Shown: positions 296 through 21,471 of the stretch, piece after piece
Layout: each line of letters starts with the position of its first letter
Numbering within the stretch: position 1 is the stretch's first letter
Virus record (IMG/VR): IMGVR_UViG_3300025018_000001
Reading direction: 5' to 3' (one strand)
Length of the DNA: 64,000 bases
From: a virus
Lineage: Duplodnaviria > Caudoviricetes
Program-made: the position numbers and the translations under genes
The notes under the pieces: generated by a model
Database searches by the model: none
What the model was told of the DNA's origin: nothing
The model's input: the letters and a program-made list of their open reading frames with translations, nothing else

Positions 296-2230
296 TTAAT
301 CTTGTTTAGCAGTACATTTATCACATACTAGTCTAGTACCATAATGGTCGTCCGCCTCAAATCTCATTATATTGTGTTCACATTTTTTACCACTTGCATC
401 CTTTTCTTCACATTCATGCTTTATCCAACAAGGGCCTATTACTGGTGCAGTACGCATGGGCATAACAGGAAAATAATGATTAAAGGCGTCATCCACAGAA
501 CTTACAACTATCTTAGCCACCTCATCTGCATGAGTTATAGGTGCCTCTACAACAATCTCATCATGTACCGACAATAACAAACGTGCACCAACATCTAATT
601 GTTCTAAACGTTCAACACATAATACCATTGCTAATTTAATAGTATCACTGTCGGAACCCTGAATCTTATGATTTTTAGCAGCACGTTCTACCCCACCTAT
701 TATCTTCTTCCTTGCTGGGTCACTCATAGGTGGTATATTGTAAAAACGGTGTCTACCTGTAATAGTAGTACTACTATGTGTACGTACTGCGTCCTTTGCT
801 GCTTTAGTAAGCCAAGTATTCAAAACATTATTGATTCTAAAATATTTATCAATAAGCTTTTGAGCTGTATCCTTAGGTATACCTAAACGTTTACCCAAAC
901 CAACAGCAGAAATACCATAAGCAAGTCCAAATGAAATAGCTTTGGAGGCTTTACGTTGTTCAGGAGTAACCTTATCATATGGCACTTCATAAATTCTAGC
1001 AGCGTTTACTGTATGTAAATCTAAACCTTTCTCATATGTGTCTAAAAAGTTAGGCTCTCCTGACATAGCACCCATAATAACTAATTCTGCAGAGTTCTGA
1101 TCCACAGTTATTAAACACATTTTATCGTCTGCTATAAAACAAGATCTAAACTTTTGCTTTCCTGGTATATTCTGTAAATTAGGGTTGTTAGAAGACATCC
1201 TTCCTGTCGATACCATCTGCTTAAACTGTGTATGTAATCTTCCTGTTTTAGGGTGTATACGCTCAATTAAAGCTTCACCATAAGTATTTACTAACTTGGC
1301 ATTTTGTCTGTAAGATAATAAATCATCTACAACTTTATGACCAGAATATTTTTTTAACGCCTCGTTTGCAGTGGACTCAACCTTAATACCAAGTTTGTTT
1401 AAGGCTGCCTTAAGTTGAACAGGGCTTGCAATATTAACTGTTGGTACACCAAATAACGATAACTGGTCTTGTGTGACTTGTAAGCTATCCTCAATATTCT
1501 TTTTGAACCCTTCAAGCTCACTAGCAAATTCATCCATCATAAGACGCCACTTTGTTACATCTAATTTTACACCATTTAATTCCATCTCACACAGTGGTTT
1601 TATAAAAGCCATTTCTAGTGCTAGTACCTCTTGCAAATTGTACTTCTCTATTCTTTGCATTTGCATACTACGTATTATATCTAATACACAAACATCATTT
1701 GCGGCATATGCAACCTGTTTGTCAGTAAATTCTTGGTCATAAACTTCAAAAGTCCCACGAGGTTCTTTATTCATAACCATTCCTAAGTACTTTTCTACTA
1801 ATTTAGCTAAACTAAAACCAGATACTTGCACACCTAGATACATAAGAATTTCTGCTAGCATTGTATCATAAACATTTTCAATATAAAAACCATACTGAGA
1901 CTTTAAAACTTTCATGTCATAGCTAGCATTTTGAAGTATCTTTAATTGCTTTTTACTTGTTAAAATTTTCTTAAATAAACTACCATGAATAGTAATCCCA
2001 GGTAAGTCACTTCTTACATCAAATACGTAAGCCATATTAGGCACACCTATTTGCAATAGGGTAGTCTTACATCTAAAGGGGTCTAAAGATGTGCCCTCGG
2101 TATCTACCTCCAATATTGGCTGGGTATATAAAAAATCGAGTACCTCTCTAGCTCTAGCTTCATCTTTTATATATTCATAGTTTGGTGTAGGTAGTTCAGG
2201 TAACTCAACAAATGCTTCTAAATTATTCAT
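296..2230 (-). CDS. polA: Family A DNA polymerase with 3'-5' exonuclease, no 5'-3' exonuclease, C-terminal Cys4 extension
   Basis: Exo motifs DTEGT, NASYD, YAAND; TGRMSSNNPNLQNIP; motif A DQNSAEL; motif B RKASKAISFGLAYG; motif C HDEIVVE. Confidence 0.97.
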   Translation of the reverse strand: MNNLEAFVELPELPTPNYEYIKDEARAREVLDFLYTQPILEVDTEGTSLDPFRCKTTLLQIGVPNMAYVFDVRSDLPGITIHGSLFKKILTSKKQLKILQNASYDMKVLKSQYGFYIENVYDTMLAEILMYLGVQVSGFSLAKLVEKYLGMVMNKEPRGTFEVYDQEFTDKQVAYAANDVCVLDIIRSMQMQRIEKYNLQEVLALEMAFIKPLCEMELNGVKLDVTKWRLMMDEFASELEGFKKNIEDSLQVTQDQLSLFGVPTVNIASPVQLKAALNKLGIKVESTANEALKKYSGHKVVDDLLSYRQNAKLVNTYGEALIERIHPKTGRLHTQFKQMVSTGRMSSNNPNLQNIPGKQKFRSCFIADDKMCLITVDQNSAELVIMGAMSGEPNFLDTYEKGLDLHTVNAARIYEVPYDKVTPEQRKASKAISFGLAYGISAVGLGKRLGIPKDTAQKLIDKYFRINNVLNTWLTKAAKDAVRTHSSTTITGRHRFYNIPPMSDPARKKIIGGVERAAKNHKIQGSDSDTIKLAMVLCVERLEQLDVGARLLLSVHDEIVVEAPITHADEVAKIVVSSVDDAFNHYFPVMPMRTAPVIGPCWIKHECEEKDASGKKCEHNIMRFEADDHYGTRLVCDKCTAKQD

Positions 2231-2231: not shown

Positions 2232-3296
2232 CTAACTCCCTAATAAAGTTACTACTTTAAACATTATATTATAAAACATGTGTTCTGCAGGTTTACCTGT
2301 AAGATAGATTGGTGTTGTTAATTGTGATAAAGCGTTTGAAATATTCTTACCACTAGTTAAGTTGCTTCGTTTTAGACAGCCCACAAAAAAGCCGCATACA
2401 GCAATACGTATACTCTCTACGGGGTATTTCTTGGCTAACTTCTCAAACAATACACAGGATTCTTTAAAATCTCGTTTAATTAATGTCTTACATAGATGTA
2501 TAGTTTCTGCATCATCTTCATCTAAGATAATACCTGTTAGTAACTCTTTAACATTAGTTAAATTCCAAGAACCTTCTGTTATTACAGAGTCTAAACAATT
2601 AAGCGCTTTTCTAGGTACACCAAAAGATAAGTCACAAATATACTTTAATACATCAATGTCATAGTTTACCCCTTCAAATTGAGCTACGTTTTCTAACATT
2701 TGCATTATCTCTTCAGGAGATAAAGGTTTCAGATGCAATATCTTACACCTATCTAGAAACGGATCGTCATCCGTATTTTTACTTGTTAGTTTCTCTGGCT
2801 CATTAGTACAAAATATAATATACACATGTGAGTAACAATCTTCCATACGCTTTAGTAATAAAGCTTGTGCTGCTGGAGATAATCTATGCGCTTCATCAAA
2901 TATTAGAACTTTATGTTTAGAGCTAAATGGTGAAGAGGATAAATTCTCAACTAACCCATCTACGGCGTCTTTACCGTTGTTACTACCTACATTTATTTCA
3001 TTAACATCCATACTATTTGAATTTAAAATAGCGGTACAAGAAGAACAAGTAAGACATGGTACTGTATCTTTAGAATTTTCACAATTTAAACTCAGTGCTA
3101 AAATCCTAGCTAAAGTAGTCTTACCTAAACCAGCATCACCTGTTAGTAATAAAATATGAGGTAGTGTACCTTTTATAAGATAATTACTGACCAATGTTTT
3201 AACAGAAGGACTTCCTAAAAATTCTTCTACTGTACAAGGCCTGTACACAGTTAAAAAACCATTTGCGCCTGTCCTTGTTTCTCTTCTTATTAACAT
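2232..3296 (-). CDS. dnaX: DNA polymerase III gamma/tau-like clamp-loader AAA+ ATPase (gamma-length)
   Basis: YRPxxxEEFLG start, Walker A GDAGLGKTT, Zn module CENSKDTVPCLTCSSC, Walker B DEAH, CTNEP, DRC arginine finger, GVPRKAL sensor 2. Confidence 0.93.
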   Translation of the reverse strand: MLIRRETRTGANGFLTVYRPCTVEEFLGSPSVKTLVSNYLIKGTLPHILLLTGDAGLGKTTLARILALSLNCENSKDTVPCLTCSSCTAILNSNSMDVNEINVGSNNGKDAVDGLVENLSSSPFSSKHKVLIFDEAHRLSPAAQALLLKRMEDCYSHVYIIFCTNEPEKLTSKNTDDDPFLDRCKILHLKPLSPEEIMQMLENVAQFEGVNYDIDVLKYICDLSFGVPRKALNCLDSVITEGSWNLTNVKELLTGIILDEDDAETIHLCKTLIKRDFKESCVLFEKLAKKYPVESIRIAVCGFFVGCLKRSNLTSGKNISNALSQLTTPIYLTGKPAEHMFYNIMFKVVTLLGS

Positions 3297-3730
3297 AAGT
3301 ACTCCTTTCGATTTAAATATAATTCAGTTAAGATACCTCTACCTGAGGTAGTTTTAAATTGTTTAAACCCCAAATCTTTGTTAGTACAAAAAGAATTAGG
3401 TATCATACGCATACAAGGTATATCTGATATAAAGCTTCCAATATAAACAGCGTCATCAGCAGTATAATTGTATTTGCGTAAAATTTCAAGTAAAATATCA
3501 CGTTTATTTTTTGGTGCCCAGTAAAAAGGTATATATTTTCTTGTACAGAGATTATAATTAACATTGTTGTCGGCAGATAAGAACACAAACTGGTAGTCGG
3601 ACTTCAACTTGTTTATAGCTTCAAAGTCACCAATGTAAAAATCCTTAAACAGTGTTATACCTATGTTATCAATTCTGCTACATCCAGAAGTAATAACTCC
3701 ATCTATTTCTGAAATTATTATTTTTGTCAT
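3290..3730 (-). CDS. KdsC/YrbI-like HAD-fold protein with degenerate catalytic motifs
   Basis: IIISEIDGVITSG resembles KdsC DVDGVLTDG but with D->E; YIGSFISD resembles GDDxxD; C-terminal GRGILTEL resembles GxGAVRE. Confidence 0.75.
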   Translation of the reverse strand: MTKIIISEIDGVITSGCSRIDNIGITLFKDFYIGDFEAINKLKSDYQFVFLSADNNVNYNLCTRKYIPFYWAPKNKRDILLEILRKYNYTADDAVYIGSFISDIPCMRMIPNSFCTNKDLGFKQFKTTSGRGILTELYLNRKEYLC

Positions 3731-4287
3731 TTTTTACCTACTATTAATATGTCATTTGGGATATTTAGTATACTACTGGTGGGTGTCTTAATAAAATGTT
3801 TAACTGTACAACCTGAATTATTTATAATAGCCCTCCAAAGCCCTGAAGATCTGTGTCTACAAGAGTCCTCTGTATACGAGGATTGTAAGTCACCAGTAAT
3901 TATCATAAAACCACCAGACTTTAAATAAGTGCACAAATTTTCTAGAGCCTTCTGCCACATAAAGTCATTTAATTCATAAGATAGAGTGCTTAATACATGT
4001 ATTACGTCATACTGTCCTATAAATGGGCCTATGCTTTCATAAAGTTCTTTATCGAGTATGTCATAATTGTACACATCAATAAATTTATTAACACAAGGTG
4101 GGTTCTTATCTAAACTCGTAACCAAAGTAGCCTGTACAGTATTTAAATAAAAGTCAACCCAATATTCCTCTGTAGTTGTATCCAGTACACACAAATCATC
4201 GAGGTGGGTACCACAATATTTATACAACATTTTAAATATATAGTTCTCTATTAGATTATTGTAGTAGTTACTGAACCATCTATTCAT
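3727..4287 (-). CDS. Class I SAM-methyltransferase-like protein, degenerate motif I
   Basis: YDVIHVLSTLSY and LKSGGFMII match class I MTase downstream motifs. Motif I reads VLDTTTEE and lacks GxG. Confidence 0.55.
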   Translation of the reverse strand: MNRWFSNYYNNLIENYIFKMLYKYCGTHLDDLCVLDTTTEEYWVDFYLNTVQATLVTSLDKNPPCVNKFIDVYNYDILDKELYESIGPFIGQYDVIHVLSTLSYELNDFMWQKALENLCTYLKSGGFMIITGDLQSSYTEDSCRHRSSGLWRAIINNSGCTVKHFIKTPTSSILNIPNDILIVGKK

Positions 4288-4300
4288 TTAATCTCCCAAT

Positions 4301-4329
4301 ATATTAGCATAGAATTATAATTAAAGCAA
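4301..4329 (-). promoter_or_regulatory. Sigma70-type promoter with extended -10
   Basis: Minus strand TTGCTT-17 nt-TAATAT with TGc before -10, just upstream of the GGGAG RBS of the 4287 ORF. It has the same TTTTGTTG context as the 224-252 promoter. Confidence 0.65.
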
Positions 4330-4459
4330 CAAAAATTTACTTGTGTAGAACAATTATTTAAATTGCAGTTAAAAACGCTTATAATGCCCCGTAGTAGAGT
4401 TTTAATACTAAAGATATGTCAGTACACCTTTTTTAATAAAACACCTATAAAAGACACGT

Positions 4460-4491
4460 GAGGTACCTATACGTTATGCATAGAGTACCTC
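4460..4491 (-). terminator. Stem-loop, possible terminator after the methyltransferase gene
   Basis: Inverted repeat GAGGTAC-CTAT...ATAG-A-GTACCTC just past the stop at 4499, followed on the minus strand by ACGTGTCTTTT (weak U-tract). Confidence 0.45.
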
Positions 4492-4498
4492 ATTTACT

Positions 4499-4978
4499 TT
4501 ACTTAATAACTTTAAGAATAAAGTTAGAATGTACACTTAAAGTACTAATTAATTTTAAGCCTACTTCAGAACACAGTTCTTGTAACCATTTAGTGTTAAA
4601 AATAACGTAATGAAAATTTCCTGGGTAGTCTTGACCTCCAAAAATATGATAAGACACAAATTTAGCATCTTTATTATCTTTGTAGTGCTCAGCAACCCAC
4701 TCCATATCTGGTGTACGTATTTCCAAAGTTCCTCCTAATTTTAAGACCCTGTACCATTCAGTTAACAAGGTTAGAGTTTTACTTATTGGAAAATGTTCTA
4801 TAATATCACTAGCTAATAGGTAGTCAAAATAATTATCTTCAAACGGAAGTACTTCTGCAGAGCTGACTACATCAACTACACTTAAATCTGAACGTTCATC
4901 TAAATTTATACATTTAAATCCTTCGGGATATTCTGTAAATGTCCTGTCACCACAACCAATATTCAATGTCTTTTTCAA
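4499..4978 (-). CDS. Class I SAM-dependent methyltransferase (type 11-like)
   Basis: LNIGCG motif I, LPFEDNYFD, DIIEHF, EWYRVLKLGG...TPD. Start moved from 5005 to TTG 4978, which follows a GAGGT RBS and removes the overlap with the upstream gene. Confidence 0.9.
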   Translation of the reverse strand: MKKTLNIGCGDRTFTEYPEGFKCINLDERSDLSVVDVVSSAEVLPFEDNYFDYLLASDIIEHFPISKTLTLLTEWYRVLKLGGTLEIRTPDMEWVAEHYKDNKDAKFVSYHIFGGQDYPGNFHYVIFNTKWLQELCSEVGLKLISTLSVHSNFILKVIK

Positions 4979-4994
4979 ATTAACCTCTAATAAA

Positions 4995-6116
4995 TTAAAT
5001 TTCAACTGCTTCTATAAAGATCTTTCCTATAATGTCATCAGAGAAATTACTTATAAGCTCCTTCTTTAATTGGTCACCTCTACGTTTTGCTGTTAACTTA
5101 TCTTCAAATACACATTGTGCTAAAGATGCCCCATGTGTTGGGGATGCTTCTGCCCAGTTCATCGACCCTAAGTACCATGGGGAGAAAGGCATACCTGACA
5201 CAGGTGTTTCTACGTAGTTAACTAAGTAACTATTATGACTATTTAAGTACTGTAAAACACCACCATAACCTGTCACTATAACTGGATTACCTGCGGCCCC
5301 AGCATTAGCCGTACTCATTCCCCAACCTTCTGCCCTGTCTAAAGCTATATAACAATCACACCTTTTATGTAGTGCAGTTATTTCCTCTTCACTCAACAAA
5401 TCTAAAATCAAATAGATTGGTGGGTACTTAGGTAGTACAATCATCTGTTTCATACGTTTAATAGTTGCTCGAATTGCATCTCTGTCTGCATCAGCGTAGC
5501 TACTACCGTATGTTTTTAAAACTAGCGCAACATTTTCATCATTCTGAAAAGCCGACCAATATGCTTTTATAGTGGCCAAAGGATTTTTACGTTCAGTCCA
5601 TTGATTAATATTATAAAACAAAAAGGTATCTTTGTCAGGTATGTTTAATATATTACTACAATCTTCATTTTTTGTAAAGTTAAAAGTGTCCACCACATGT
5701 GGTACTACATAAATAGGTATAGTAACACCACTACTTTCAAATACTTCCTTATTCCATGAACAAGGTACAAAAACTTTGTCTACATTGGTGTTTATATATT
5801 TAGGCCATTCTGGATGTAAATGGTCTGTCTCCCACACAGTGTACCCTATATTTATTTTATCTTCCTCACGGTAACGTTCCCAGAATTCTGGAGTTGTATG
5901 TATAATAACAGTGTCATACTCAATATCTTTATTAAGCAACTCAGAAATAATTGAAGAAGCCTCTCCTAAATCTGGTCTAGCTTCCTCAAAAGATATGGGC
6001 GCTATTGTTAAAGGCACACCTAATTTATGTAATGCAAGTATGTAGCCTCTAGCCGCTTTAGCGTAACCAGAATTATCAAGACATGGTGCTATATACTTTA
6101 TCCCTTGTATCCCCAT
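4995..6116 (-). CDS. GT-B (GT4-like) glycosyltransferase
   Basis: N-terminal SGYAKAAR, GYTVWET, RKNP donor-binding motif, AEGWGMSTANA...NPVIVTGYGG (ExFG-like motif). Confidence 0.9.
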   Translation of the reverse strand: MGIQGIKYIAPCLDNSGYAKAARGYILALHKLGVPLTIAPISFEEARPDLGEASSIISELLNKDIEYDTVIIHTTPEFWERYREEDKINIGYTVWETDHLHPEWPKYINTNVDKVFVPCSWNKEVFESSGVTIPIYVVPHVVDTFNFTKNEDCSNILNIPDKDTFLFYNINQWTERKNPLATIKAYWSAFQNDENVALVLKTYGSSYADADRDAIRATIKRMKQMIVLPKYPPIYLILDLLSEEEITALHKRCDCYIALDRAEGWGMSTANAGAAGNPVIVTGYGGVLQYLNSHNSYLVNYVETPVSGMPFSPWYLGSMNWAEASPTHGASLAQCVFEDKLTAKRRGDQLKKELISNFSDDIIGKIFIEAVEI

Positions 6117-7923: not shown

Positions 7924-9192
7924 TTATAGTTGTTCTAAATTTATAGCTTTGGTTTTTGGCTTACTACTTACTCTAGAAGACAATTTAGCAGCTTCCTGGT
8001 CAAAAATATTTAACCACTGAGTAGCAATTTTACCTGACCACTGCATATCTGACTTAACCCACTCATAAGCATTATCAGCTTTAGCCTTTGCTTCTGTATA
8101 ATTATCATACACATAACACATTTTAGCTACTAAATCATCTACATCAACCAAAGGCCGGGGGATATCATTATCATTAGGTAAGGTAGTCCATAAACTTAAA
8201 TTATTACCACTACCCACCAAGTAACCACGCTCTTTTGTAATAAGTTCTTCCATTGCAGTATTATTAGGCATGATAGTTGGAGTTTTACAAGCCATAGCCT
8301 CTAACCAACCTATACCAAAACCCTCACCCAGGGTAGTACTTATTACACAATCACAGCTATTATAGAGGTAGTTAATAACGTCTACAGGAAAGCCCTGATT
8401 AGGCTCCATCTTATCCGGTAATACCACATCTCTACCTAGTTGCATATCCATCTCCGTAAGTAGTTTAGGAATGTTCCAACCCTGGTCTACACCGCACATG
8501 TGTAAGTATAGCATTGATTCGGGTACATACTTCTTAAACTCCTTGAACGCTTGGATAGTTCTAGGGATATCTTTTCTCTGCTGATTTCTATTTATATTCA
8601 TAAATATAAAGCGGTCCTTACCAATAGAAAAGTAAGATTCCCTAAATTTAGCAACTTCTTCAGTAGGTAGGGGTTTAAATATATTCATATCTACCCCATG
8701 GTAAATTATATCTATATCTGGCTGTTTACCTCTTACGTGTTTCAAATAAGCTTGTTTTCCAAAGTTAGTATAAGCTACTAACCTATCTACGGGGAGTAAG
8801 TTAGGGTACCATTCAGCACGTAGTACACTGTCAATAGGGTAGTACATAATAGTTTTAAACGGCTTTACTCTTTTTGCTTTCAAATGCTTAATTAGTTCGG
8901 GTAAAAAGTCAACTATAAAGGTATCCTGCAATACCCAGAGTATGTCAAAGTCATGCTCTAAAGCAAAGTAACAAAATTTACGTCTTCCGTAAGGGTCACC
9001 GGCTTGATGATCCATTGCTGGCCAAATTCTGTAAGGTAGTGTGTGTGGTGTACCATGATAGTTAATACCGAAAATATCAATATCATACCTACCACTAGCA
9101 TGTAATTGGGCTAGTATGTTTCTACTTACAGTACCAAACCCTGTTGCTACGGTTGGACTATCCGCGTATACTAAAATTTTTGTCTTTTGCAT
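7924..9192 (-). CDS. GT-B (GT4-like) glycosyltransferase
   Basis: YADSPTVATGFGTV, YHGVD, NRNQQRKD, TTLGEGFGIGWLEAMACKTP. Confidence 0.92.
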   Translation of the reverse strand: MQKTKILVYADSPTVATGFGTVSRNILAQLHASGRYDIDIFGINYHGTPHTLPYRIWPAMDHQAGDPYGRRKFCYFALEHDFDILWVLQDTFIVDFLPELIKHLKAKRVKPFKTIMYYPIDSVLRAEWYPNLLPVDRLVAYTNFGKQAYLKHVRGKQPDIDIIYHGVDMNIFKPLPTEEVAKFRESYFSIGKDRFIFMNINRNQQRKDIPRTIQAFKEFKKYVPESMLYLHMCGVDQGWNIPKLLTEMDMQLGRDVVLPDKMEPNQGFPVDVINYLYNSCDCVISTTLGEGFGIGWLEAMACKTPTIMPNNTAMEELITKERGYLVGSGNNLSLWTTLPNDNDIPRPLVDVDDLVAKMCYVYDNYTEAKAKADNAYEWVKSDMQWSGKIATQWLNIFDQEAAKLSSRVSSKPKTKAINLEQL

Positions 9193-10382: not shown

Positions 10383-10899
10383 TTTTTCCCTCCATATAAA
10401 GATAGCCATAATCTCTAGCATATCTATATTTATATTTATTTAAAACTGTATCAGCATAACAAAATAGTTGTGCTTGTGCATCAATCATATCATTATCTTT
10501 TTTAAATGTCAAGTTTTCTATATCTAATAAATAGCATACGAAATTAAATAGGTCTTCTTTATTAGGTGATGCAAAGTAAGACTTGACAGTAGTATTTGTA
10601 ATTATGTAAGGTTCAATACCTAGTGTTTTTATACAGGTGAGTTTGGCTACCCCAGCAAACTCACTAAGTATTTTTAGAGTTCCTACATTAATACCAGAAA
10701 AAGTATCCTCCTGGACTATAAAGTCAGGGGCTAAGTCTATAAGTAACTGCTCTAATAAATTACTAAATAGTAATAATCTTTCAGACCTAGTAGATTTAGG
10801 GCTAGTACAAATAACACCCTTTTTAAAAGTCATACCATCTGAAGTAAAACACCAACCTGTAGAGGAGGCAGAAACATCTATACTTAAAATTTTACACAT
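10366..10899 (-). CDS. ruvC: RuvC-like Holliday junction resolvase
   Basis: [20 protein letters not shown] acidic RNase H-fold pattern typical of phage RuvC. Confidence 0.82.
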
Positions 10900-11656
10900 T
10901 GCTAACTTCTTTAAGTACTTTCAATTGTTCCGGGGTAACTTTGTCAATTGATGGAAGTACTAAGTGCAATTGTACAAATACATTACCATTAGGTCCTCCA
11001 TTTTTACCAATACCTCCCTTACCCATGAACCTCAACACTGACCCATGTGTGGCGCCATTAGGTATAGCTACATCAATCTCTTTCTCTACAATTACCCTCC
11101 CAGAGTCACAAGAGGTGCACTTTGTTTTAACAGTAAAGCCTCGGCCTGAGCAATGTTTGCAAGGTACTTGTGTCATCATACGCACATTAAACTGCATAAC
11201 GATTTGTTCTGTACTGCCCATACCATTACATACATTACATGTGGTACGTTCTGACGCGCCTGTGCCCGCACATTTTTGACAAGGGTCTGCCAGAGTAAAC
11301 TTAATATTTTTAGTAGCCCCTGATAGTATATCATATATAGATACAGGTACTTTTATATTTACATCTTGTCCAGGCGTTGGGAAGTTTTGCCTATTATGCT
11401 GACCACCCATACCAAAATGGTTTTTAAAAAAATCATTAATATCAAAGTCACTAAAACCAGACCTAGGATTATCATGTTGGTTTCTTTTCTGGGGGTCAGA
11501 TAAAATCTGGTAAGCGTCATTTATTTCTTTAAATTTAGTATCATCACCATTATTCTTATCTGGGTGATGTAGTAAAGCTAACTTTCTGAACGCTTTCTTT
11601 ATTTCTTCATCTGTAGCATTAGGGGTGACACCTAAAACTTTATAGTAGTCTTTCAT
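10892..11656 (-). CDS. dnaJ: DnaJ (Hsp40) co-chaperone, shortened
   Basis: [10 protein letters not shown]...HPDKN J-domain, short G/F region, CxxCxGxG x3 plus CTSCDSG, and one C-terminal beta domain. Start placed at ATG 11656 after GAGG. Confidence 0.95.
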
Positions 11657-11657
11657 T

Positions 11658-12020
11658 TTAATCCTCAAGCATAGTTACAACTTTACCGTCAATAGCTACA
11701 AAGTCATCTACAATTTTAAAACTTATTGGGCAAAATAGTTGATTATCCGCTAGAGCTGGATATTTTTTAACGCCAAAAAGAACTTTAGTAATAGTAGATA
11801 CATAGAATATGTTATCACTAAAAATAGTAAAGTCTCCATCTTCTTCAGTAAAGAATGTAGGGTCTAAATCATAATAACTACCTTTACAAGGTAATTTAAA
11901 AGAGTACATTTCTTCACTAATATGGATCTTAAAATTATTAGCTGGTAACATGGCTAAGGTAGGCATTGCGTATATAGCATCAGTTTCCTGTAAACCCATC
12001 CCATTTTCATTTTCGTTCAT
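11658..12020 (-). CDS. Hypothetical protein
   Basis: 120-aa ORF with GGAG RBS, in operon context. Confidence 0.8.
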
Positions 12021-12035: not shown

Positions 12036-12347
12036 TTAGTATAAAACAATAAAATTATCAACAACTACATTTGTCCAGTATGCTTTTGAAGGTCCTTGGC
12101 AGTATTTACATTTAGTGTCATAAGATGTCTCTTCTATATGCCCAAATAATTTTATATACGTACCATTAGGTAATTCTGCCAACGCTTCAGCAATTTTACC
12201 CCATGCCCCTATTTTAACATATTGAAATTTATCATCAATAGGTAAAGCCAGTTTACATTTGTAATTTGTTATATCACTATATATGCTGACTTCTCTGTAA
12301 GAGATTTTACCTACTAATTTTACAATATTCTCACCTGATATATTCAT
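12036..12347 (-). CDS. ssb: Single-stranded DNA-binding protein (single OB fold, no acidic tail)
   Basis: VKLVGKI, V..GAWGK.AE, G..I.LFGHIE..SY, W.TNVVVDNF match the SSB/PriB OB-fold pattern; adjacent to primase. Confidence 0.7.
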   Translation of the reverse strand: MNISGENIVKLVGKISYREVSIYSDITNYKCKLALPIDDKFQYVKIGAWGKIAEALAELPNGTYIKLFGHIEETSYDTKCKYCQGPSKAYWTNVVVDNFIVLY

Positions 12348-13383
12348 CTAGATACCTATAAATTTCGTCTGTTGTCAATTCTGCTGGCCCATCTGTCTCT
12401 TTTTTAACAGAAGGAGTGATGTCAATGTCTACTACAGGTATGCCCTCTTTTGTAAGAGCTTCAACCCCTAACTTTGCACCACCTCTACCAGCTTTATCAG
12501 CATCATACATTATAATAACTCCTTTAAGTGCATAAATTTTCAACAACTGCACTTGTCCTGGGCTAAGAAAAGAACCCATAGTACAAACTACGTTGTAAAT
12601 ACCATAGTCGTACATGCGCCAAACGGACTTAAAACCTTCTACAACTATTATAGGTGTTATATTACCATATAGTTTAGCATTTTGCAAGTTATAAAGAACT
12701 AGATCTTTAACAAAACCAGTAGTTATTATATATTTAAAAGAATCGTCTGGTGGGTTCATCCTTGTATCTTTTAATGAGTAGGCTTTTAATGCACCATCAA
12801 CATCTCTGATTGGTATTATATCCCTAAGAATACCAAACTCATCTGTTAAGCCACCAGCAACTTCAAAATAATCTAAGGTAGTATTGCTAAAATTATCTTG
12901 TCTAATCATAACCTGCGAACGTAATGGCCTGTAAGATATTAAATGATCTTCAGATACATATGCGGGCTGCTGTGAAGTTGCATAACTTTTAATAAACGCA
13001 TCTCTATCTTTAGAAAATAATCTATCAACTTTAAAATTATTAGATAAAACACTATCACCTACAAGATCTTGAAGATATTTTACTGCTTCTTTAAAATCAA
13101 TTTTAAGTACCCCTTTTATAAGACCTATTATGTCATAACCATAGGTTTCCTGACATTTAGAGGTAAAACAAAGCCATGTCCTGGTTTGTTTATTTAACCT
13201 AAAAGCACTCCTATTATCGCCACCATGCACTGCACAAGATGCTCTAATTTGTTTAGCATTTTCATTTGTTATTTTAAAGCCTAGAGAATGTAATAAAAGA
13301 TGTAGGTCTACACTTTCTTTTAGTAGTTGTATATCTGTATTATCATAAGAGCGTGTTGTGTTCTGCAAAGCTATCACCTCCAT
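12331..13383 (-). CDS. dnaG: DNA primase (CHC2 zinc finger + TOPRIM)
   Basis: CAVHGGDN...WLCFTSKC zinc-binding domain; VVEGFKS and YDADKAG TOPRIM motifs. Confidence 0.93.
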   Translation of the reverse strand: MEVIALQNTTRSYDNTDIQLLKESVDLHLLLHSLGFKITNENAKQIRASCAVHGGDNRSAFRLNKQTRTWLCFTSKCQETYGYDIIGLIKGVLKIDFKEAVKYLQDLVGDSVLSNNFKVDRLFSKDRDAFIKSYATSQQPAYVSEDHLISYRPLRSQVMIRQDNFSNTTLDYFEVAGGLTDEFGILRDIIPIRDVDGALKAYSLKDTRMNPPDDSFKYIITTGFVKDLVLYNLQNAKLYGNITPIIVVEGFKSVWRMYDYGIYNVVCTMGSFLSPGQVQLLKIYALKGVIIMYDADKAGRGGAKLGVEALTKEGIPVVDIDITPSVKKETDGPAELTTDEIYRYLDEYIR

Positions 13384-14812
13384 TTTGATTACTACCTAAA
13401 TCTAATTTTAAATCACTTAAATAGTCAAATGTTTCTACTTGATTTTCTTGACTTACTTCAACGATTCTAAGCTTAGTCTTTTTAAATTTAAAGCCTATGC
13501 CCCACTCACCAGTAGTACCACCACGACGCGTATCACGAATACATAGTCCGTAATGCCCAGCTATATCTAAATCTACTGCTTCTTCTTCAGCTTTTTTCAA
13601 ATCCCTAAGGCCCCAAAAAGCTACGATATCTCCATATCTAGCTACTCTATCAGAGTCAGCTACATCCCCTGTTCTATTTACTTGTACTGCTGCTAAGAAC
13701 GGAATATCTAACTGGCCGGATAAATCCTTTAAGCGTGTTGTTACATCACCTAAAATTTGGTATTCTTTCCTACCTGCTTCCACACTGGAAGATTCTGGCT
13801 CTTTTATGTAGTCAAAAACAGCTAACTTAATATCTTCTTTGAACTTATATTTTTTGTAGAGTGCTGTTATCTTTTCTAAATTATATCCAGGTAAGTAATG
13901 ATGAAACAACTTACTTTTCTTTAGATATTTAGCTGCTTCTTGTATACGTCTAAATACTTCTTTATCATTTCTAAAGCCACCATGTTTGATAGTTCTCTCC
14001 TGTACACCACTAATGATTGCTAGTACCCGGTCACGCCATTCTTTAAAGGTCATTTCTGTGTCCACGTATAGTGTGGGTAGTCCATCATTAACCGCTACAT
14101 GAGTAGCTATATTAGTAAGCACAGTAGACTTACCCATTTTCTTCCTTGCTGCTACAATCATTAATGTTCCAGGAATTAAACCATCAATAACCTTATCGAG
14201 TATAGGGAAGCCTGTTGAAATACCAATAACAGGTATATGATCATCCATAATACTTTCTATGTATTCATCTAAACCATCTGATATGTGCTTAGGTTCTGCT
14301 ATAGCTTCACTATGAATAGATAAAGATATTAAGTCAGCCTGTACGCCATTAATCAAGTCATCACTAGATACAGAAGCTAACGAAGACGCATTTGCTAAAA
14401 CGCTATCTGTGTGTAAATTTAACTTACTGAATAACTTATATTTTGTACTATCATCTATCAATTTTGTAATTAAATTTGGTAAGTCTTTATCCGGTACTGG
14501 TACATTTAATATAGCGTCAATAAATGCCTCGCTACAGGTATCTTCAAAATTTAAATCTATTGAAGTTTTAGTTAGTAAAAGTTTACTACATTTCGAGTAC
14601 CCTGCTTTATTCAATAAACATAAAATAGAGAAGAACGCTCTAGACTCAGGTGCAAGGAAATCAGTCTCTTCCACTCTAGCTAGTACATTAAAAAAGTTAT
14701 CTTCACTATGAGACATAGCAGAAAGAATACCTCGTTCATTATAAGCATCACAAAAAGTATGCGCAGATTTATCAATACTCTTACTTATAGTGCTTTCTTT
14801 GGTATAATTCAT
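13343..14812 (-). CDS. dnaB: Replicative DnaB-family helicase
   Basis: N-terminal ERGILS.M domain, Walker A AARKKMGKS, DTEM, Walker B FDYIK, QVNR. Confidence 0.95.
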   Translation of the reverse strand: MNYTKESTISKSIDKSAHTFCDAYNERGILSAMSHSEDNFFNVLARVEETDFLAPESRAFFSILCLLNKAGYSKCSKLLLTKTSIDLNFEDTCSEAFIDAILNVPVPDKDLPNLITKLIDDSTKYKLFSKLNLHTDSVLANASSLASVSSDDLINGVQADLISLSIHSEAIAEPKHISDGLDEYIESIMDDHIPVIGISTGFPILDKVIDGLIPGTLMIVAARKKMGKSTVLTNIATHVAVNDGLPTLYVDTEMTFKEWRDRVLAIISGVQERTIKHGGFRNDKEVFRRIQEAAKYLKKSKLFHHYLPGYNLEKITALYKKYKFKEDIKLAVFDYIKEPESSSVEAGRKEYQILGDVTTRLKDLSGQLDIPFLAAVQVNRTGDVADSDRVARYGDIVAFWGLRDLKKAEEEAVDLDIAGHYGLCIRDTRRGGTTGEWGIGFKFKKTKLRIVEVSQENQVETFDYLSDLKLDLGSNQNGGDSFAEHNTLL

Positions 14813-15236: not shown

Positions 15237-15488
15237 TTATGATACCTCATTGTCGTCTTTTTTATTTTCTTCTGTAACGTAAAAGCCAGTACAAAAATAA
15301 TCGAAGTCGTACTGCTTGGTTTCATAGTTAAAAAAATGATACCAGTCTGTCTTCATACCTATCTGTCTACAATACTGACTTAAGTCGCAGTACTTAATGT
15401 CACCTGTTGCAGTTCCATCTTTTAAAGGACACCAGTCTGCACAGTCCTTTCCATGTCTCTTTGGATTTACATTTATAAGATTAAACAT
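15237..15488 (-). CDS. Small Cys-rich hypothetical protein
   Basis: 83 aa with CADWC, C..SQYC and a further Cys. Confidence 0.7.
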   Translation of the reverse strand: MFNLINVNPKRHGKDCADWCPLKDGTATGDIKYCDLSQYCRQIGMKTDWYHFFNYETKQYDFDYFCTGFYVTEENKKDDNEVS

Positions 15489-15825
15489 TCATCGCCTCAT
15501 ATATTCTGTTTAGTACAAGTTCATTGTCTATGCTGTCTATTGTATCAAATAACAACACTAAAGTCAAGTCATTTTCTTCACAATACTCAACTTTTAGACT
15601 ATCTCTCCTCTTTTGGGCATAAAAATTAGAGACGTCACCATGAAAGTGTTTAACAAACTCAGTATGTTGACGTCCCTGACATTCAAATAATAGCCCTAAC
15701 TCCTTAATATAGAAATCAAAAAATAACTGAGTATTTTTAAATCTAACATAATACTCTTTCTCAATATAAGTAAATTGAAATTCTTCTTTTAATATATTAT
15801 ATACATCATCAGCTATTTTACTCAT
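15481..15825 (-). CDS. Vsr/DUF559-like endonuclease
   Basis: FDFYI...LLFECQGRQH...RD..K..YC pattern of the very-short-patch-like nuclease family. Confidence 0.75.
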   Translation of the reverse strand: MSKIADDVYNILKEEFQFTYIEKEYYVRFKNTQLFFDFYIKELGLLFECQGRQHTEFVKHFHGDVSNFYAQKRRDSLKVEYCEENDLTLVLLFDTIDSIDNELVLNRIYEAMNV

Positions 15826-15827: not shown

Positions 15828-16928
15828 CTACGCCGTAACTTCTCTAGCTTTATCGTACTCCGCTTGCGCTTTGTAGTATACATCTAAACCAAGTAATACA
15901 GTAATTTCCTCTTTTATTAGTAGGAAAATATCTGGGTTGTCCTCAAAAAACTTTCTTACTCCGTTGTCACCTTGACCTATATTTTCATCGGAGTATTTGT
16001 ACCAACTACCCGCTTTAGTCAAAATACCTAAATCAGTGGCTATTTTAATAACTTCCCCAGTCATGTCATAACCAACACCATATATTAGGTCTGTCTCGGA
16101 TTTAACGAAAGGGCACGCCAATTTATTTTTAATAGTTTCAAACTCTGTTTTATGCCCAATAACTTTACCTTTTGAATCAACTATTCTATTTGCTTTTGCT
16201 CCTATACCAGATACTCTAATCCTGCCTGTAGAATAAAAAGGAAGTGCATCCCCACCAGTAGTGGTCTCCGGGTTACCATACCCACCTATTTTATTACGTG
16301 TTTGATTTATAAATATAACACACGTATCTGTCTCAGCAGCTATAGGTACAAACCTAAGAGTAGTTTTACTCATCAGTCTAGCTAATAAAGCTATATTATT
16401 ATCTTCTAACTCTGAGTCAGCTGCTACCTTTGGTATGAGTGATGTAACAGAATCAATAACTATTAGATCTACACTTCCAGTTTTCATAAGTGTTTCAGCA
16501 ACACCTAAGTTATCCTCCCCTGTATACAGCTCAACTACATGAAGTTTAGCAGTATCAACACCCATACTACTAAATAGTCTTGGGTCAGCACTATGTTCTG
16601 CGTCAACGAAAACACAATTCATACCTCTACGTTGTGCCTCTGCTATAATTGACATAGCTAGTGTGGTTTTTCCTGCACTTGGTGGACCGTAAATTTCATA
16701 TATACGCCCTTTAGCTACACCACCTCTATCTAAAGCAGCATCTAACCCTATACTACGTGTAGAAATAGTGTTTATCACTAAAGGTTTATCACACATATAT
16801 TGTAAAACGCTACCATGTTTTTTATTAATAGCCTTTATAGCAATATCAAATGAAGATGTTTTGCCTCCAGTACTTGCCCCAACCTCTGAAGCAGACTCTT
16901 TTAATTCTTTTGTTTTTTTAATCGCCAT
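15828..16928 (-). CDS. recA: RecA-family recombinase
   Basis: GRIYEIYGPPSAGKTT, FVDAEH, VIDSV, FINQTRNKIG, PETTTGGDALPFYS, KAGSWY. Confidence 0.97.
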   Translation of the reverse strand: MAIKKTKELKESASEVGASTGGKTSSFDIAIKAINKKHGSVLQYMCDKPLVINTISTRSIGLDAALDRGGVAKGRIYEIYGPPSAGKTTLAMSIIAEAQRRGMNCVFVDAEHSADPRLFSSMGVDTAKLHVVELYTGEDNLGVAETLMKTGSVDLIVIDSVTSLIPKVAADSELEDNNIALLARLMSKTTLRFVPIAAETDTCVIFINQTRNKIGGYGNPETTTGGDALPFYSTGRIRVSGIGAKANRIVDSKGKVIGHKTEFETIKNKLACPFVKSETDLIYGVGYDMTGEVIKIATDLGILTKAGSWYKYSDENIGQGDNGVRKFFEDNPDIFLLIKEEITVLLGLDVYYKAQAEYDKAREVTA

Positions 16929-17493
16929 GTACTCTCCTTAAATTTTCAAAATTAAACCCTGTGTATTCATTATCCTTTAACTCATCCGCTTCTACCATTT
17001 TTTCCATTCTGTATGCATTAAGTATTTCTACATTACTATTTAACATACTTATAACTTTATCAGTTATCCATTTACATTTATCACTACCAAAAACCCAAGT
17101 ACCTATAGGTAAGGTTAGGTCTAATTCAGATTCATACACAAATAGGGCGTTAATAATATTAGCACAGTCCTGTATACCATCCTCAAAGGAACACTTAAGC
17201 TCTAGCTGTCTATTACTTATAAACCTTGTAAATAAAGTTCTATCTTTTTGCCTATTAGCTACTAGTGCACAAACATCATTGTGATAGTAGTCCATTAAAT
17301 TATAAAAGAAATTAACCAACTCGTCAAGATTTTTTATTTGTCTAGGCCTTGCCTTATTTGCTACTTTGTATCCCAACGATTTTAAAAAGTTTACACATGC
17401 CACTTCAACTTCTTTCTCAGGTAGTTTATCATTTAAAAAACTTGGTGCATCTAACTGTTTTACTTTAGAGATTAAAATATCTAAATTTTTCAT
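16918..17493 (-). CDS. Hypothetical protein
   Basis: 191-aa ORF overlapping both dnaN and recA. Confidence 0.8.
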   Translation of the reverse strand: MKNLDILISKVKQLDAPSFLNDKLPEKEVEVACVNFLKSLGYKVANKARPRQIKNLDELVNFFYNLMDYYHNDVCALVANRQKDRTLFTRFISNRQLELKCSFEDGIQDCANIINALFVYESELDLTLPIGTWVFGSDKCKWITDKVISMLNSNVEILNAYRMEKMVEADELKDNEYTGFNFENLRRVHGD

Positions 17494-18626
17494 TAATGTC
17501 GCCTAACAGGAGTTATTAAAGCCTTCTGATTACTAAACTGTGCTGAGTCAAATATTACAGCACTTGTATCATTAGAAAACTGCATAATGACTAAATCATC
17601 CATTATAGCTGTTAGAGTCTGTAATAGATAGGTACCGTTAAGATCAACTATAAAATCACCTGTAAACTTAATGTCTTCGCTATATTCTGCATCAGCAAAA
17701 TCATTCTTTAATGATAACTTATTATTAACTAAAGTTATGGTTAGTCTACTATGATCTTCTTGATCAAGTGACGGAAGTACTGGTGCTAAACTACTTAATA
17801 GTATATTCTTATTTAGTGTAATTGTATGAGTAAAATTCTCAAAAGCTTTTGTATAGTCTGGGTACTCCTCACCTAGTATTAATTGACCATGTAGTACAGT
17901 ATTACTAAATTTAGCTTTTATTTTACCGTTGTCTATACAAAAGAATACGGTACTATCTGTGTCTAATACACGTTTTAATGCGTTAACAAAACTATAGGTA
18001 AGTGTAAAACTACCCTCAAAAAACTTACTAGTGTTAGGTGTTTTATACTCAGATAGTTTTTGTGCGTCAGTACCTGCAAAATATACATAGTCTTTATCGA
18101 AATTTATATTTATACCTTGTAAAAAATTACGTATTGATGAGGGATTAACAGCATACATAACTTTAGACAAAGCTAAACGTAGAGTAGCTGCATTAATTTC
18201 AAATAAACTTTGTGTAAAAGGTGATGGTATTGCAATTTTTTGTGGTGGATATAAACGTAATTTTAATTTATGAGCTGTTTTTTTATTGTTAGCCGCAAGG
18301 CTATCAATTGTAACAGATAGGTCATTCTTAAGTGCTTTGAATTTAACTATCTTAGCTCCCACACCCTCGGATAGATAGGGGAATGCAAAAAGAAAAGAAC
18401 TAAGTTTGCCATATAATATAGCATTAACGCCTACCGTTTTTACGTCACATTTAGGCACTACATGCGTTAGAGATACTAATTTATTACTACAAAGTAGCAC
18501 TAATTCTCCGGTATCTCTAATGTCCATAAACAATTGTCCGTCTGTGTCCTCAGAAGTAGCTTTAGCTACAGCACTAAATAATTTCATGGCTTTCTGAAGA
18601 GACAGTAAATCTACACTAAATTCCAT
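17493..18626 (-). CDS. dnaN: DNA polymerase III beta sliding clamp
   Basis: 377 aa; three-domain clamp pattern, YAVN...R.FLQGINI, YFAGTDAQKLS, GEEYPDY, LNGTYLLQTL, ALITPVR C-terminus. Confidence 0.92.
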   Translation of the reverse strand: MEFSVDLLSLQKAMKLFSAVAKATSEDTDGQLFMDIRDTGELVLLCSNKLVSLTHVVPKCDVKTVGVNAILYGKLSSFLFAFPYLSEGVGAKIVKFKALKNDLSVTIDSLAANNKKTAHKLKLRLYPPQKIAIPSPFTQSLFEINAATLRLALSKVMYAVNPSSIRNFLQGININFDKDYVYFAGTDAQKLSEYKTPNTSKFFEGSFTLTYSFVNALKRVLDTDSTVFFCIDNGKIKAKFSNTVLHGQLILGEEYPDYTKAFENFTHTITLNKNILLSSLAPVLPSLDQEDHSRLTITLVNNKLSLKNDFADAEYSEDIKFTGDFIVDLNGTYLLQTLTAIMDDLVIMQFSNDTSAVIFDSAQFSNQKALITPVRRH

Positions 18627-18699: not shown

Positions 18700-21471
18700 C
18701 TATAAAATTAGTTGCGGGGTGATATTACTTAAAATAAAATCATTGTGAAGAGAGTCACCAACACCTATTATAAAGTAAGCACTTCTAAATGGCACTTCTA
18801 AGTAGTAGAAACCATTATTATCTGTTATAGATGATCCTAGTAAATCACCAGAATTTTGGTCATATACTAAAACCCTTGTGATGTACGTCTTATTATATAT
18901 TGTAGTGTAACCTCTCACAAAATAATTACTAAATTCTATTAGTTCATCTTTTAAACTTCTGTTCATAAATAGCACAGAGTCGCTAGATATTTGATGCTTG
19001 AAAAAAAATACTTCCGATATTTTACCAGTTATGCCTGTCTCTAGGTCACCAAGAATCACAGACGTTTCATTTGTACGTACTCCTTCGGCTGTCTTGAATA
19101 AAAAGCGGGTATCGGAATCACCTAGTAAAGCGTTTAAGTCCGTAAAATTACTAGACACACCTAAAGTATAAGATAGCCAGTCAGAGGATAACGTATAATC
19201 AGGTAATTCTAAAATATGTGTAATATTATTATACCTATACTCCATAGCTAATACATTATTATTACGCGATGAACGTCTGAAAAAAGAGCAATTTTCATTT
19301 GTATAGAAATTTGAAATATAAAAAGAGGTGACCCCACCGGTATTAGACACTCCTTGGGTATTATTAAGAATAATTTTAGTATAAGTTTTTGTGGTTGACC
19401 CCACGGAGTAACCATTATACCAGGCGCCATCATAATAATAAGTATATTTTGTAGTTGTGCCATCATTATATATACGTATCTTACCTGAGAAATAATCTAC
19501 AACACTACCTATATTAACCCCCCATTTTGTTGTAAAAGTTCCTGGGGCTACTTGTTGTATATAAATATATGAAAGGTTATTTGAACGTGTAACACTGAAT
19601 AGATACTCATTTACTTCCCCAACAAAGTGTAACCTGACCCTTATGGCCCAATCATCACTTAAGTTCCCGCCAGTGACATCAAAATCAAAAGAGAAATCAA
19701 AGTCATCACCCACGTAATAGTTAGTTGTAATTCTATTATCTAGATTAGTATCGAATTTAATTCTATTCCCATCTAATGTAGCACCACCTAATAAAATAGT
19801 CCACAAATAAGGGTCTAGTGGATCACCTATAGGTCCAGAAAAATCATCACTTAAACTATCACGGGTTAGTAAGGGTGTTTGTTGATAGTATAAAGACATT
19901 GAAGTTTTAGAATATAAACCTTTGGTCATAATAATATTACCATCATCTATAGTACCGAATATAAGTGCTTGTGAAGTATAACCATAGTTATATCTATGAT
20001 TAGTACCTAGATCTGCCGTACTAGTTAAACTATTAAATTTTATGGCATAGCTTCCTAAATTGTCAGAAGTTATAGATACATTATTTAATGCTAACACAGG
20101 TGAGTTAATATCTGTGGAGTTAACATAACCAAATGAGGGATTAAAGTGGTGTACAGAACTAAACTTATCTTTCCAAACTAGCTGAGAGGGTATTATAGGA
20201 TTTTCAAGCTTTACCGAGTCCACGCGTAGAATACAATATTGACTACTTAACACGCCGCTATATAGTAAAGTGTATAAATTACTAAACTCTTTGTATACAA
20301 ATATACCTGATATATTAGTAAGGTCGTAAGTACCCTGTAAATTAAACTCAGAAAATAAATGAAAATCAGTGAAGGTTTTACCATCCTCAGAAGAAGCATA
20401 ATACATTGTGCCTCCACCAGAGACATTAACTTTTATCCATACGTAATATAAACCATTCTCAAAGTAGGCGAAATTTATATTTATAGTGCTTATAACAACA
20501 TCTATGTCAATAGTGGTTTCATGAAGAAGACCTTGGCGGTTTACCCAAGATATACCATCACTAGACTCAGCATATAATATGGAATAATAATAAGTGTTAC
20601 CTATACCCACACCACTATACCACATTTTATATACAGAACCTTCTGCTATTACACAGGGTGATTGTTTACCGTTACGGGTGTCATAAAAACTAGTGCTATC
20701 TAAACCAGTGCACTCTATAAAATTATACCAAACTTTACCATCTAAAGATTCACAGTAGAAAATTCTATGCCCCAAAGTGGAGTTAGCATTATTACCAGAA
20801 TACCACATCTTAAAGACATCATTCTCAAGAAGTACTGTTCCAGCAGTTTTATATATTCTAGTTTCTGTAGGTACATCATCTACACATATGGTAAAGTTAG
20901 TAAAATTTATTAAATCTAAGGATTCACAATAATAAATAGCACCGTGCCAGTAACCACCTACAACTACCTTACCCATATACCATAATAAATATTTTCCATT
21001 ATGTTTTATAATACTAATAGGTTCTCCGCCGTAAGTATCGTAAACGCTGTAAGATCCGGAAGGTATTAGGGGGTATATAGCTAAGTCACCAGCTTCTGAA
21101 ATATATGAAACATTACTTTCTTTAGTTACATCATAATAAAAATAAAAAACATTTGTATAAGTGGAAGAAACTTCTAGAGGTAGAAACCAGAACAATGCTT
21201 TCTCAGTGACATGATCCCACATATCTAATTCAGCATATAACTGTTTCTCTTCCCCATCTACTATTTGCGAAAAAGCTACTTTTTTTCTGCTAGCGTAACT
21301 ACTACCCGCTATTGCCATATGATTAAATACGTGACAGATATCTGTTTTTGAGAAACCAGATTGATTGGATAATCTAAAAAGTATAGGTACAATTTCAGTA
21401 CAAACCCCCACCCTTTCTATTGGTACAGTAAATTGTAATCTATTGGAATTCTCCCAGCCTGATAAACTCAT
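18700..21471 (-). CDS. Modular virion/tail-fibre protein: DUF2341-like N-terminus, five-bladed beta-propeller, lectin-like module, C-terminal tail-fibre-type beta domain
   Basis: Five repeats of hydrophobic-NGxYKMWYSG type with (Y/F)CESxDGxxW Asp-box-like motifs; C-terminus homologous to the 124-aa neighbour. Confidence 0.7.
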   Translation of the reverse strand: MSLSGWENSNRLQFTVPIERVGVCTEIVPILFRLSNQSGFSKTDICHVFNHMAIAGSSYASRKKVAFSQIVDGEEKQLYAELDMWDHVTEKALFWFLPLEVSSTYTNVFYFYYDVTKESNVSYISEAGDLAIYPLIPSGSYSVYDTYGGEPISIIKHNGKYLLWYMGKVVVGGYWHGAIYYCESLDLINFTNFTICVDDVPTETRIYKTAGTVLLENDVFKMWYSGNNANSTLGHRIFYCESLDGKVWYNFIECTGLDSTSFYDTRNGKQSPCVIAEGSVYKMWYSGVGIGNTYYYSILYAESSDGISWVNRQGLLHETTIDIDVVISTININFAYFENGLYYVWIKVNVSGGGTMYYASSEDGKTFTDFHLFSEFNLQGTYDLTNISGIFVYKEFSNLYTLLYSGVLSSQYCILRVDSVKLENPIIPSQLVWKDKFSSVHHFNPSFGYVNSTDINSPVLALNNVSITSDNLGSYAIKFNSLTSTADLGTNHRYNYGYTSQALIFGTIDDGNIIMTKGLYSKTSMSLYYQQTPLLTRDSLSDDFSGPIGDPLDPYLWTILLGGATLDGNRIKFDTNLDNRITTNYYVGDDFDFSFDFDVTGGNLSDDWAIRVRLHFVGEVNEYLFSVTRSNNLSYIYIQQVAPGTFTTKWGVNIGSVVDYFSGKIRIYNDGTTTKYTYYYDGAWYNGYSVGSTTKTYTKIILNNTQGVSNTGGVTSFYISNFYTNENCSFFRRSSRNNNVLAMEYRYNNITHILELPDYTLSSDWLSYTLGVSSNFTDLNALLGDSDTRFLFKTAEGVRTNETSVILGDLETGITGKISEVFFFKHQISSDSVLFMNRSLKDELIEFSNYFVRGYTTIYNKTYITRVLVYDQNSGDLLGSSITDNNGFYYLEVPFRSAYFIIGVGDSLHNDFILSNITPQLIL

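Follow-up and report, generated by a model that had tools for sequence, protein, structure and literature searches.

Family A DNA polymerases are usually seen either as repair enzymes or as phage replicases that become processive through thioredoxin, as in T7, or through fused domains. Here we describe a family A polymerase (PolA) that carries a candidate β-clamp-binding motif (CBM), QLSLF, at the tip of its thumb and is encoded together with a bacterial-type β clamp and a clamp-loader subunit. The genes lie in a 64,000-nt stretch of DNA (the window) from the IMG/VR record IMGVR_UViG_3300025018_000001, a virus of the Caudoviricetes. Two described phages, RSL1 and Ma-LMM01, encode PolA with polIII-beta and gamma homologues, and it was suggested from this gene content, citing the stimulation of E. 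coli Pol I by β, that the clamp may serve PolA there (Kazlauskas & Venclovas 2011, PMC3201878). Because of that proposal, the idea of a replicase made of PolA, β and γ is not new. In E. coli, the Pol III α subunit has the internal CBM IGQADMFGV, and binding of Pol I to β has been seen by native polyacrylamide gel electrophoresis only, with neither an affinity nor a mapped motif (PMC11139829). In T7 DNA polymerase, the thioredoxin-binding domain (TBD) is an insertion at the thumb tip, preceding helix H1 (Czernecki et al. 2023, PMC10201439). That reclassification of PolA mentions no clamp-binding motif in PolA, and neither do the searched passages of a 2016 survey of virus replication. In a 2021 survey of jumbo phages, the sole related entry is PolA phages whose loader is RFC-like and in which no clamp was detected (PMC7824862). 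Within the literature covered, a conserved CBM in PolA, its location at the site of the T7 TBD loop and its spread, which includes crAss-like PolAs, appear to be unreported.

The polA gene (296..2230, minus strand) encodes a 644-aa protein that matches PF00476 (E = 1.4e-85) and the 3'-5' exonuclease family PF01612 (E = 6.5e-26); by Pfam domain content, the 5' nuclease domain is absent. The AlphaFold 2 (AF2) model has a mean predicted local distance difference test score (pLDDT) of 90.6 and superposes on the Klenow fragment and on the apicoplast PolA (apPol) with template modelling (TM) scores of 0.78–0.80 (Foldseek). An alignment of 70 PolA homologues, with identity down to 47%, shows that the catalytic residues are invariant: D377 and E382 in motif A, R426, K430, F434, G435, Y438 and G439 in motif B, H556, D557 and E558 (HDE) in motif C, and D43, E45, D105, Y175 and D179 in Exo I–III. 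The window PolA is a family A polymerase of Klenow architecture with both exonuclease and polymerase sites in place. Its nearest relative, with 86% PolA identity, is on a 228-kb IMG/VR contig, and the cluster of the window's clamp protein is recorded on a 264-kb contig. The source is a jumbo phage of roughly 230–270 kb, and every gene examined here is on the minus strand.

The motif is encoded at 1451..1465 (minus strand), where the reverse complement reads CAG TTA TCG TTA TTT, QLSLF, corresponding to PolA residues 256–260. It is followed by GVPTV and then by NIASPVQL, the conserved N..S..QL thumb motif. Reading of the codons agrees with an earlier note on this DNA, which had placed QLSLF just ahead of that motif. 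By shuffling, QL[SD]LF should occur 0.002 times in PolA and 0.03 times in the minus-strand proteome of the window, against a single observed occurrence. A looser pattern, Qxx[LM]F, is expected 0.12 times per shuffled PolA. Among the minus-strand open reading frames (ORFs) of the window, the wider CBM-like pattern Q[LMIVFT][SDNTAE][LM]F is found in PolA only, and a search of the window for other clamp clients, by terminal or wider-pattern CBM-like motifs, gave none that is convincing besides PolA.

Conservation across homologues is a stronger argument than chance expectation that the motif is real at the sequence level. In the 70-homologue alignment, the glutamine is kept in 67/70 sequences, the leucine at position 4 in 68/70 and the phenylalanine in 70/70; position 2 is free, with an entropy of 2.85 bits, and position 3 is T or S. 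These near-invariant anchors speak for the reading of the earlier note, which had proposed conservation as a check. The five columns before the motif are variable, while the glycine that follows is kept in 61/70 sequences, and G261, V262 and S/P263 are likewise conserved. The family form in the jumbo clade is Qx[TS]LF. With a wider set made of the window PolA and its 120 best homologues, the search pattern matched in 109 of 121; the remaining sequences are K..LF variants or differ solely at the anchor used in the search. A 2024 review gives fixed positions 1, 4 and 5 and a free position 2 as the rule for CBMs (PMC11139829). The profile of the PolA motif fits this rule and is therefore counted as support for clamp binding. 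Judged by its letters, with Q1, L/M4 and F5 fixed and position 2 variable, QLSLF qualifies as a CBM.

The thumb subdomain (1280..1558, minus strand; residues 225–317) consists in the AF2 model of helices H (225–253), H1 (270–279), H2 (289–293) and I (299–317). The thumb-tip loop between H and H1 (1424..1471, minus strand; residues 254–269) has no regular secondary structure, and its pLDDT is 74–79 compared with at least 90 in the flanking helices. The motif begins three residues past the end of helix H, and in the model this segment appears accessible and flexible. The earlier note had equated the motif position with that of the T7 thioredoxin-binding insert. This holds at the level of topology, with the modelled loop 254–269 lying directly before H1, as the TBD does in T7 (PMC10201439). 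A thioredoxin-binding insert of at least 50 residues before H1 is not found here, since the loop has 16 residues. Thioredoxin was also considered as the partner of PolA and set aside, as three relatives (G001, G011 and G025) have no thioredoxin gene. The secondary structure of the AF2 model was used for positioning within the thumb; a phmmer alignment of PolA with Taq was rejected as unreliable because it set the DQL of the motif against the Taq H1 motif.

The predicted partner of the loop is the dnaN-like gene product (17493..18626, minus strand; 377 aa, three domains). It matches Pfam beta_2 at 37.5 bits, above the cut-off, as well as the N- and C-terminal clamp domains, and it matches PHROG 947 'processivity factor' over residues 1–375 (E = 4.8e-28). 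The AF2 monomer model, with pLDDT 93.8, superposes on the β clamps of E. coli and P. aeruginosa with TM scores of 0.85–0.88 and root-mean-square deviations of 2.6–3.0 Å over about 385 columns. The phage DnaN is a full-length three-domain β clamp, encoded in the same transcription block as polA, as the earlier note had described. Residues R166, L169, T186, L191, P256, Y258, N330, P373 and R375 align with E. coli R152, L155, T172, L177, P242, Y244, N320, P363 and R365, and they are invariant or nearly so among phage clamps. By this alignment, the partner-binding cleft formed by domains II and III and the C-terminal strand is present in the phage protein. A tblastn search of the clamp against GenBank phages gave no match. 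The nearest cellular clamps by sequence are those of Bacteroidota (Solitalea, and Elizabethkingia 8DT6), which hints at a Bacteroidota host, as for crAss-like phages.

Complex prediction was carried out for DnaN with PolA thumb residues 222–330, in three runs and with three controls, using our own alignments. The score is 0.68 (0.68, 0.69 and 0.66 in the separate runs), and the best control gives 0.00. In calibration the score mark was reached by 58/80 solved complexes and by 2/110 mismatched pairs; these counts hold only roughly here, since our own alignments were supplied. The runs share at least 90% of contacts, with partner pLDDT of at least 79. On the PolA side, the predicted interface includes residues 254–264 and 266, that is, the motif and its flanks. 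On the clamp side, it includes residues 164–166, 169, 186–189, 191, 256, 258, 261, 291–292, 294, 330, 354, 356, 372–375 and 377, which by phmmer alignment mostly correspond to E. coli β R152, L155, T172–H175, L177, P242, Y244, V247, N320, V344, S346 and M362–R365. We take these E. coli residues, from established structural work, to be the canonical partner cleft. L259 and F260 enter the clamp pocket in the model with expected errors of 1–2 Å. The complex prediction that the earlier note had suggested for the phage pair therefore places the motif, as a model, in the canonical pocket. Among 23 phage clamps, conservation of the interface positions is 0.83, compared with an average of 0.65; 3 of 20,000 random sets reach the value of 0.83, which marks the pocket as the more tightly constrained part of the clamp.

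The loader subunit is encoded next to the polymerase. The dnaX-like gene (2232..3296, minus strand) ends 1 nt before the polA start, as the earlier note had read, and encodes a protein of γ length (354 aa) that matches PF13177 (E = 8e-27) and PHROG 5846 'clamp loader' (E = 3.7e-54). The motifs GDAGLGKT (Walker A), IFDEAH (Walker B) and DRC (arginine finger) can be read directly, so the protein has an AAA+ module of the DnaX/δ' type. The dnaX gene is directly upstream of polA in 35/35 jumbo-clade loci with the two genes nearly abutting, and this invariant order suggests that loader and polymerase are co-expressed, or even translationally coupled. A clamp gene is found by clamp profile search in 22/25 jumbo-clade records. 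The three records without one are estimated to be 17–54% complete, while it is present in each of the nine records with a completeness of 57% or more. A distant complete 296-kb phage, whose PolA is 32% identical and has the motif QNTLF, also encodes a clamp. Clamp, loader and PolA travel together wherever completeness permits judgement.

No rival replicative polymerase was recognized. Among the window ORFs scanned there is no Pfam match to DnaE or PolB, in line with the earlier reading that the window encodes neither Pol III α nor a family B polymerase. The same is true of DnaE/PolC (PF07733) and PolB (PF00136) in six relatives, two of them 100% complete, with controls matching as expected; the relative G001 encodes a single PolA and gives no match to the families of DnaE or PolB. 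The other replication genes of the block are a DnaB-type replicative helicase (13343..14812, minus strand; PF03796, E = 2e-31) and a DnaG-type primase with zinc ribbon and Toprim (12331..13383, minus strand; PF13662, E = 4e-11, and PF01807).

We consider it probable that PolA is the replicative polymerase of this phage and is held by the phage's own β clamp through the CBM at the thumb tip. The DnaX-like ATPase, with its partners, would load the β ring where the DnaG and DnaB homologues have made primer ends, and PolA would then take the primer end. The duplex product would leave past the thumb. Exit of the duplex along this path follows from established PolA–DNA structures. In the docked model, the flexible H–H1 loop reaches the face of the ring and the motif sits in the hydrophobic cleft between DnaN domains II and III, where L259 and F260 would insert into subsite I while Q256 and the backbone would contact subsite II. 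The ring around the duplex would block dissociation and make PolA processive, as thioredoxin does for T7 polymerase, and PolA would serve as the sole replicase. The earlier note had proposed such a hybrid replisome, a family A enzyme with a bacterial-type clamp, and it is supported in silico by the conservation of the motif, its position in the loop, the predicted docking and the gene content.

The motif is also found well outside the jumbo clade. PolAs that are about 30% identical, from phages of about 87–102 kb, have a motif of this kind in the corresponding thumb loop, with the general form Qx[DN][LMI]F (QGDLF, QGDIF, QQDLF, QLDLF, QLDMF, QADMF, QTDMF and QANMF). The carriers include the cultured or named Crassvirales crAss001 (gp64), IAS virus and cr108_1. 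In the PolA tree, the jumbo clade (26 rows) and the crAss-like clade (38 rows) cluster together (64 rows; Shimodaira–Hasegawa-like approximate likelihood ratio test, SH-aLRT, 84). This tree is rooted at the midpoint and built on 598 columns that may include about five motif columns. Every jumbo-clade row has Q..LF or K..LF. Qxx[LMI]F is present in 34/38 crAss-like rows, along with QLDFF and ILNLF variants. A third PolA clade (8 rows) has a different, longer thumb insert without the motif. Complete crAss-like records of about 87–97 kb show no clamp with the clamp profile or PF02767. The same searches miss the very remote clamps published for RSL1 and Ma-LMM01, so the absence of a clamp from crAss-like phages is not proven. 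The co-occurrence of motif and dnaN, which the earlier note had offered as a check, therefore stands in the jumbo clade wherever records are complete enough and breaks down in the crAss-like PolAs, which carry the motif without a detectable clamp. The motif is thus not tied to a phage-encoded clamp. If the crAss-like absence is real, the motif would have to be older than the phage-encoded clamp and would have to engage the host clamp there. A broader history is possible, and we propose it tentatively: the thumb-loop CBM may be ancestral to a large PolA lineage that includes Crassvirales, the members of about 100 kb would tether to the host clamp, and the jumbo relatives would have gained their own dnaN and dnaX. 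On this view, the H–H1 loop would act as a general 'processivity socket' of family A polymerases, which thioredoxin in T7 and the β clamp here would have come to occupy independently. One crAss-like phage, cr108_1 (MT774385.1), has a thioredoxin gene at 2234–2493, immediately downstream of polA, and keeps QQDLF as well, which gives two candidate processivity partners at one polymerase.

Several points weigh against a PolA held by its own phage clamp. Since crAss-like PolAs carry the motif although no clamp gene is detected in their genomes, its target could be the host clamp. On this alternative, which we regard as rather unlikely, the motif docks PolA on the host β clamp while the phage DnaN and DnaX serve elsewhere (titration of host clamp partners, recombination-dependent replication, repair or late transcription), or PolA uses both clamps. 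The grouping of the two motif-bearing clades on the tree is in its favor, and the crAss-like forms QLDLF, QLDMF, QADMF and QGDLF are nearer to the bacterial consensus QL[SD]LF. Universal pocket residues are also kept in the phage clamp, which makes it probable that a motif suited to either clamp suits both. However, clamp, loader and PolA are co-inherited without exception in the jumbo clade where this can be judged, dnaX always abuts polA, and the pocket of the phage clamp is more constrained than the remaining protein. Motif variants also follow clamp subclades, with the K..LF PolAs found alongside the most divergent clamps, although shared ancestry could also explain this. The crAss-like absence that would speak for the host clamp is itself unproven, given that clamps as remote as that of RSL1 escape the searches. 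As for the docking, clamp–peptide complexes are abundant among solved structures, and the favorable score may come from likeness to them; what the prediction shows is a fit of peptide and pocket, which falls short of showing that these two proteins bind. The model consists of the clamp and the thumb fragment. Loading is a further difficulty, as neither the clamp-opening δ nor the stator δ' is found in the window or in three relatives. Those three genomes, two of them complete, have a single gene of the PF13177 (DnaX) type each, and the complement of genes is not that of a pentameric loader with δ and δ'. The ORFs 3290–3730, 3727–4287 and 16918–17493, next to dnaX and dnaN, were considered as a small loader partner and gave no informative family or atlas match.

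That Q..LF is a structural or DNA-contacting element of the thumb, with L and F packing on helices H and H1 and the likeness to a CBM coincidental, seems improbable to us. The conservation of G261, V262 and S/P263 would suit a structured turn, the motif starts close to the end of helix H, and Qxx[LM]F is loose enough to be met by chance at the rate given above. But the profile, in which positions 1, 4 and 5 are kept and position 2 varies, follows the CBM rule (PMC11139829), and the loop is of lower confidence and without secondary structure. The complex model with the whole thumb leaves L259 and F260 free for the pocket, and the PolAs of the third clade, RSL1 and Ma-LMM01 fold without the motif. 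It is more improbable still that PolA is tethered to the clamp but works as a gap-filling or Okazaki-fragment enzyme, with the genome copied by an unrecognised divergent polymerase or by host Pol III. A divergent polymerase could be concealed among several large ORFs that were assigned to no family, phage polymerases of great divergence have escaped notice in the past, for example the phiKZ PolB (PMC3201878), and the polymerase search covers the 64-kb window and six relatives, not the phage's own genome beyond the window. E. coli Pol I works with β in Okazaki-fragment maturation (PMC6010275). Nick translation, in contrast, needs a 5' nuclease domain, which this PolA lacks, and its proofreading exonuclease is intact. 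The polA gene is in an operon-like block with those for DnaX, DnaB, DnaG and DnaN, two complete relatives have no DnaE or PolB family match, and the 923-aa ORF beside dnaN looks lectin- or glycosidase-type and not like a polymerase.

The PolA protein has one further feature of its own. A cysteine-rich C-terminal extension (299..430, minus strand; residues about 601–644) has C617, C636 and C639 invariant and C601 and C607 at least 90% conserved in the 70 homologues, and the AF2 model has β strands at 621–627 and 631–636. This extension is a probable zinc ribbon and could be a docking module for helicase, primase or single-stranded DNA-binding protein. Most crAss-like PolA alignments to the window PolA end near residue 604, before the extension. 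In many close PolA homologues, of about 1070 aa, the polymerase domain contains an intein that includes a LAGLIDADG homing endonuclease (PF14890 and PF14528); unlike them, the window copy is intein-free.

The transcription block also encodes a RecA recombinase (15828..16928, minus strand; PF00154, E = 1e-73), adjoined by an HNH or homing-endonuclease ORF (15481–15825, minus strand; PHROG 559, E = 3.5e-16). A DnaJ homologue with J domain, CXXCXGXG zinc domain and C-terminal domain (10892–11668, minus strand) is in the same replication and recombination block. Beside the replisome genes, at 3727–6116 and 7924–9192 (minus strand), there are two ORFs resembling S-adenosylmethionine-dependent methyltransferases and two GT4 glycosyltransferases (one labelled 'GT4-conflict'), interleaved with NUDIX, DHFR and ThyA genes. 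This cluster may be a DNA or nucleotide modification module. The 923-aa ORF beside dnaN (18700–21471, minus strand) matches no family in Pfam or PHROG; a weak Atlas signal indicates LamG and a GH32/43/130-like β-propeller, and the ORF is probably a carbohydrate-binding or depolymerase protein of the virion and not a replication protein.

If PolA is indeed held by the phage clamp, a β-clamp handle would be a third processivity solution for family A polymerases, reached by convergent use of one structural site, the thumb loop shared with T7. This would be the first clamp-binding site mapped in any PolA, the site in E. coli Pol I being still unmapped, and it would explain how a phage of about 250 kb replicates without a family B or C polymerase. 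Crassvirales are the most abundant phages of the human gut. The motif in their PolAs suggests a testable host dependency of this very abundant group, in which host DnaN and its loader would be required host factors. The T7 TBD has already been grafted onto laboratory PolAs as a processivity module. The 16-residue loop, with clamp and loader, could be grafted in the same way.

Among the described systems, RSL1 and Ma-LMM01 resemble the window in their set of replication genes. All are large phages in which a family A polymerase is encoded along with one γ-like loader subunit and a clamp of bacterial type, but no binding motif was mapped in those two phages (PMC3201878), and their PolA frames contain no Qxx[LMIV][FWY] (the RSL1 frame covered 1018/1057 aa). 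On the tree, the window PolA belongs to a lineage other than theirs, adjacent to the crAss-like PolAs. The Crassvirales PolAs, whose clade groups with that of the window, carry QGDLF, QGDIF and QQDLF, of the form Qx D [LI] F, in the equivalent thumb loop; they differ in that neither a clamp nor DnaX is detectable in their genomes of about 100 kb, their thumb loop is about 10–15 residues longer and the C-terminal zinc ribbon is absent. E. coli Pol I is likewise a family A polymerase that interacts with the β clamp, but it has a 5' nuclease domain and works in repair and maturation. The motif itself can be set beside that of Pol III α: both are internal pentapeptides with Q1, L/M4 and F5 and GV after, predicted here to enter the same pocket between domains II and III. 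The carrier is different, since in Pol III α it is a family C polymerase with the motif next to the OB domain, while here it is a family A polymerase with the motif in the thumb. In the site of the handle, the window PolA resembles T7 gp5, yet it is not a member of the T7-like thioredoxin-dependent group. Both are phage family A replicases, by our reading of the window enzyme, with a processivity handle in the thumb-tip loop before H1. In T7 gp5 the handle, which binds thioredoxin of the host, is an insert some 70 residues long, whereas in the window PolA it is a loop of 16 residues with a five-residue clamp motif, predicted to pair with a β clamp, a ring that depends on a loader.

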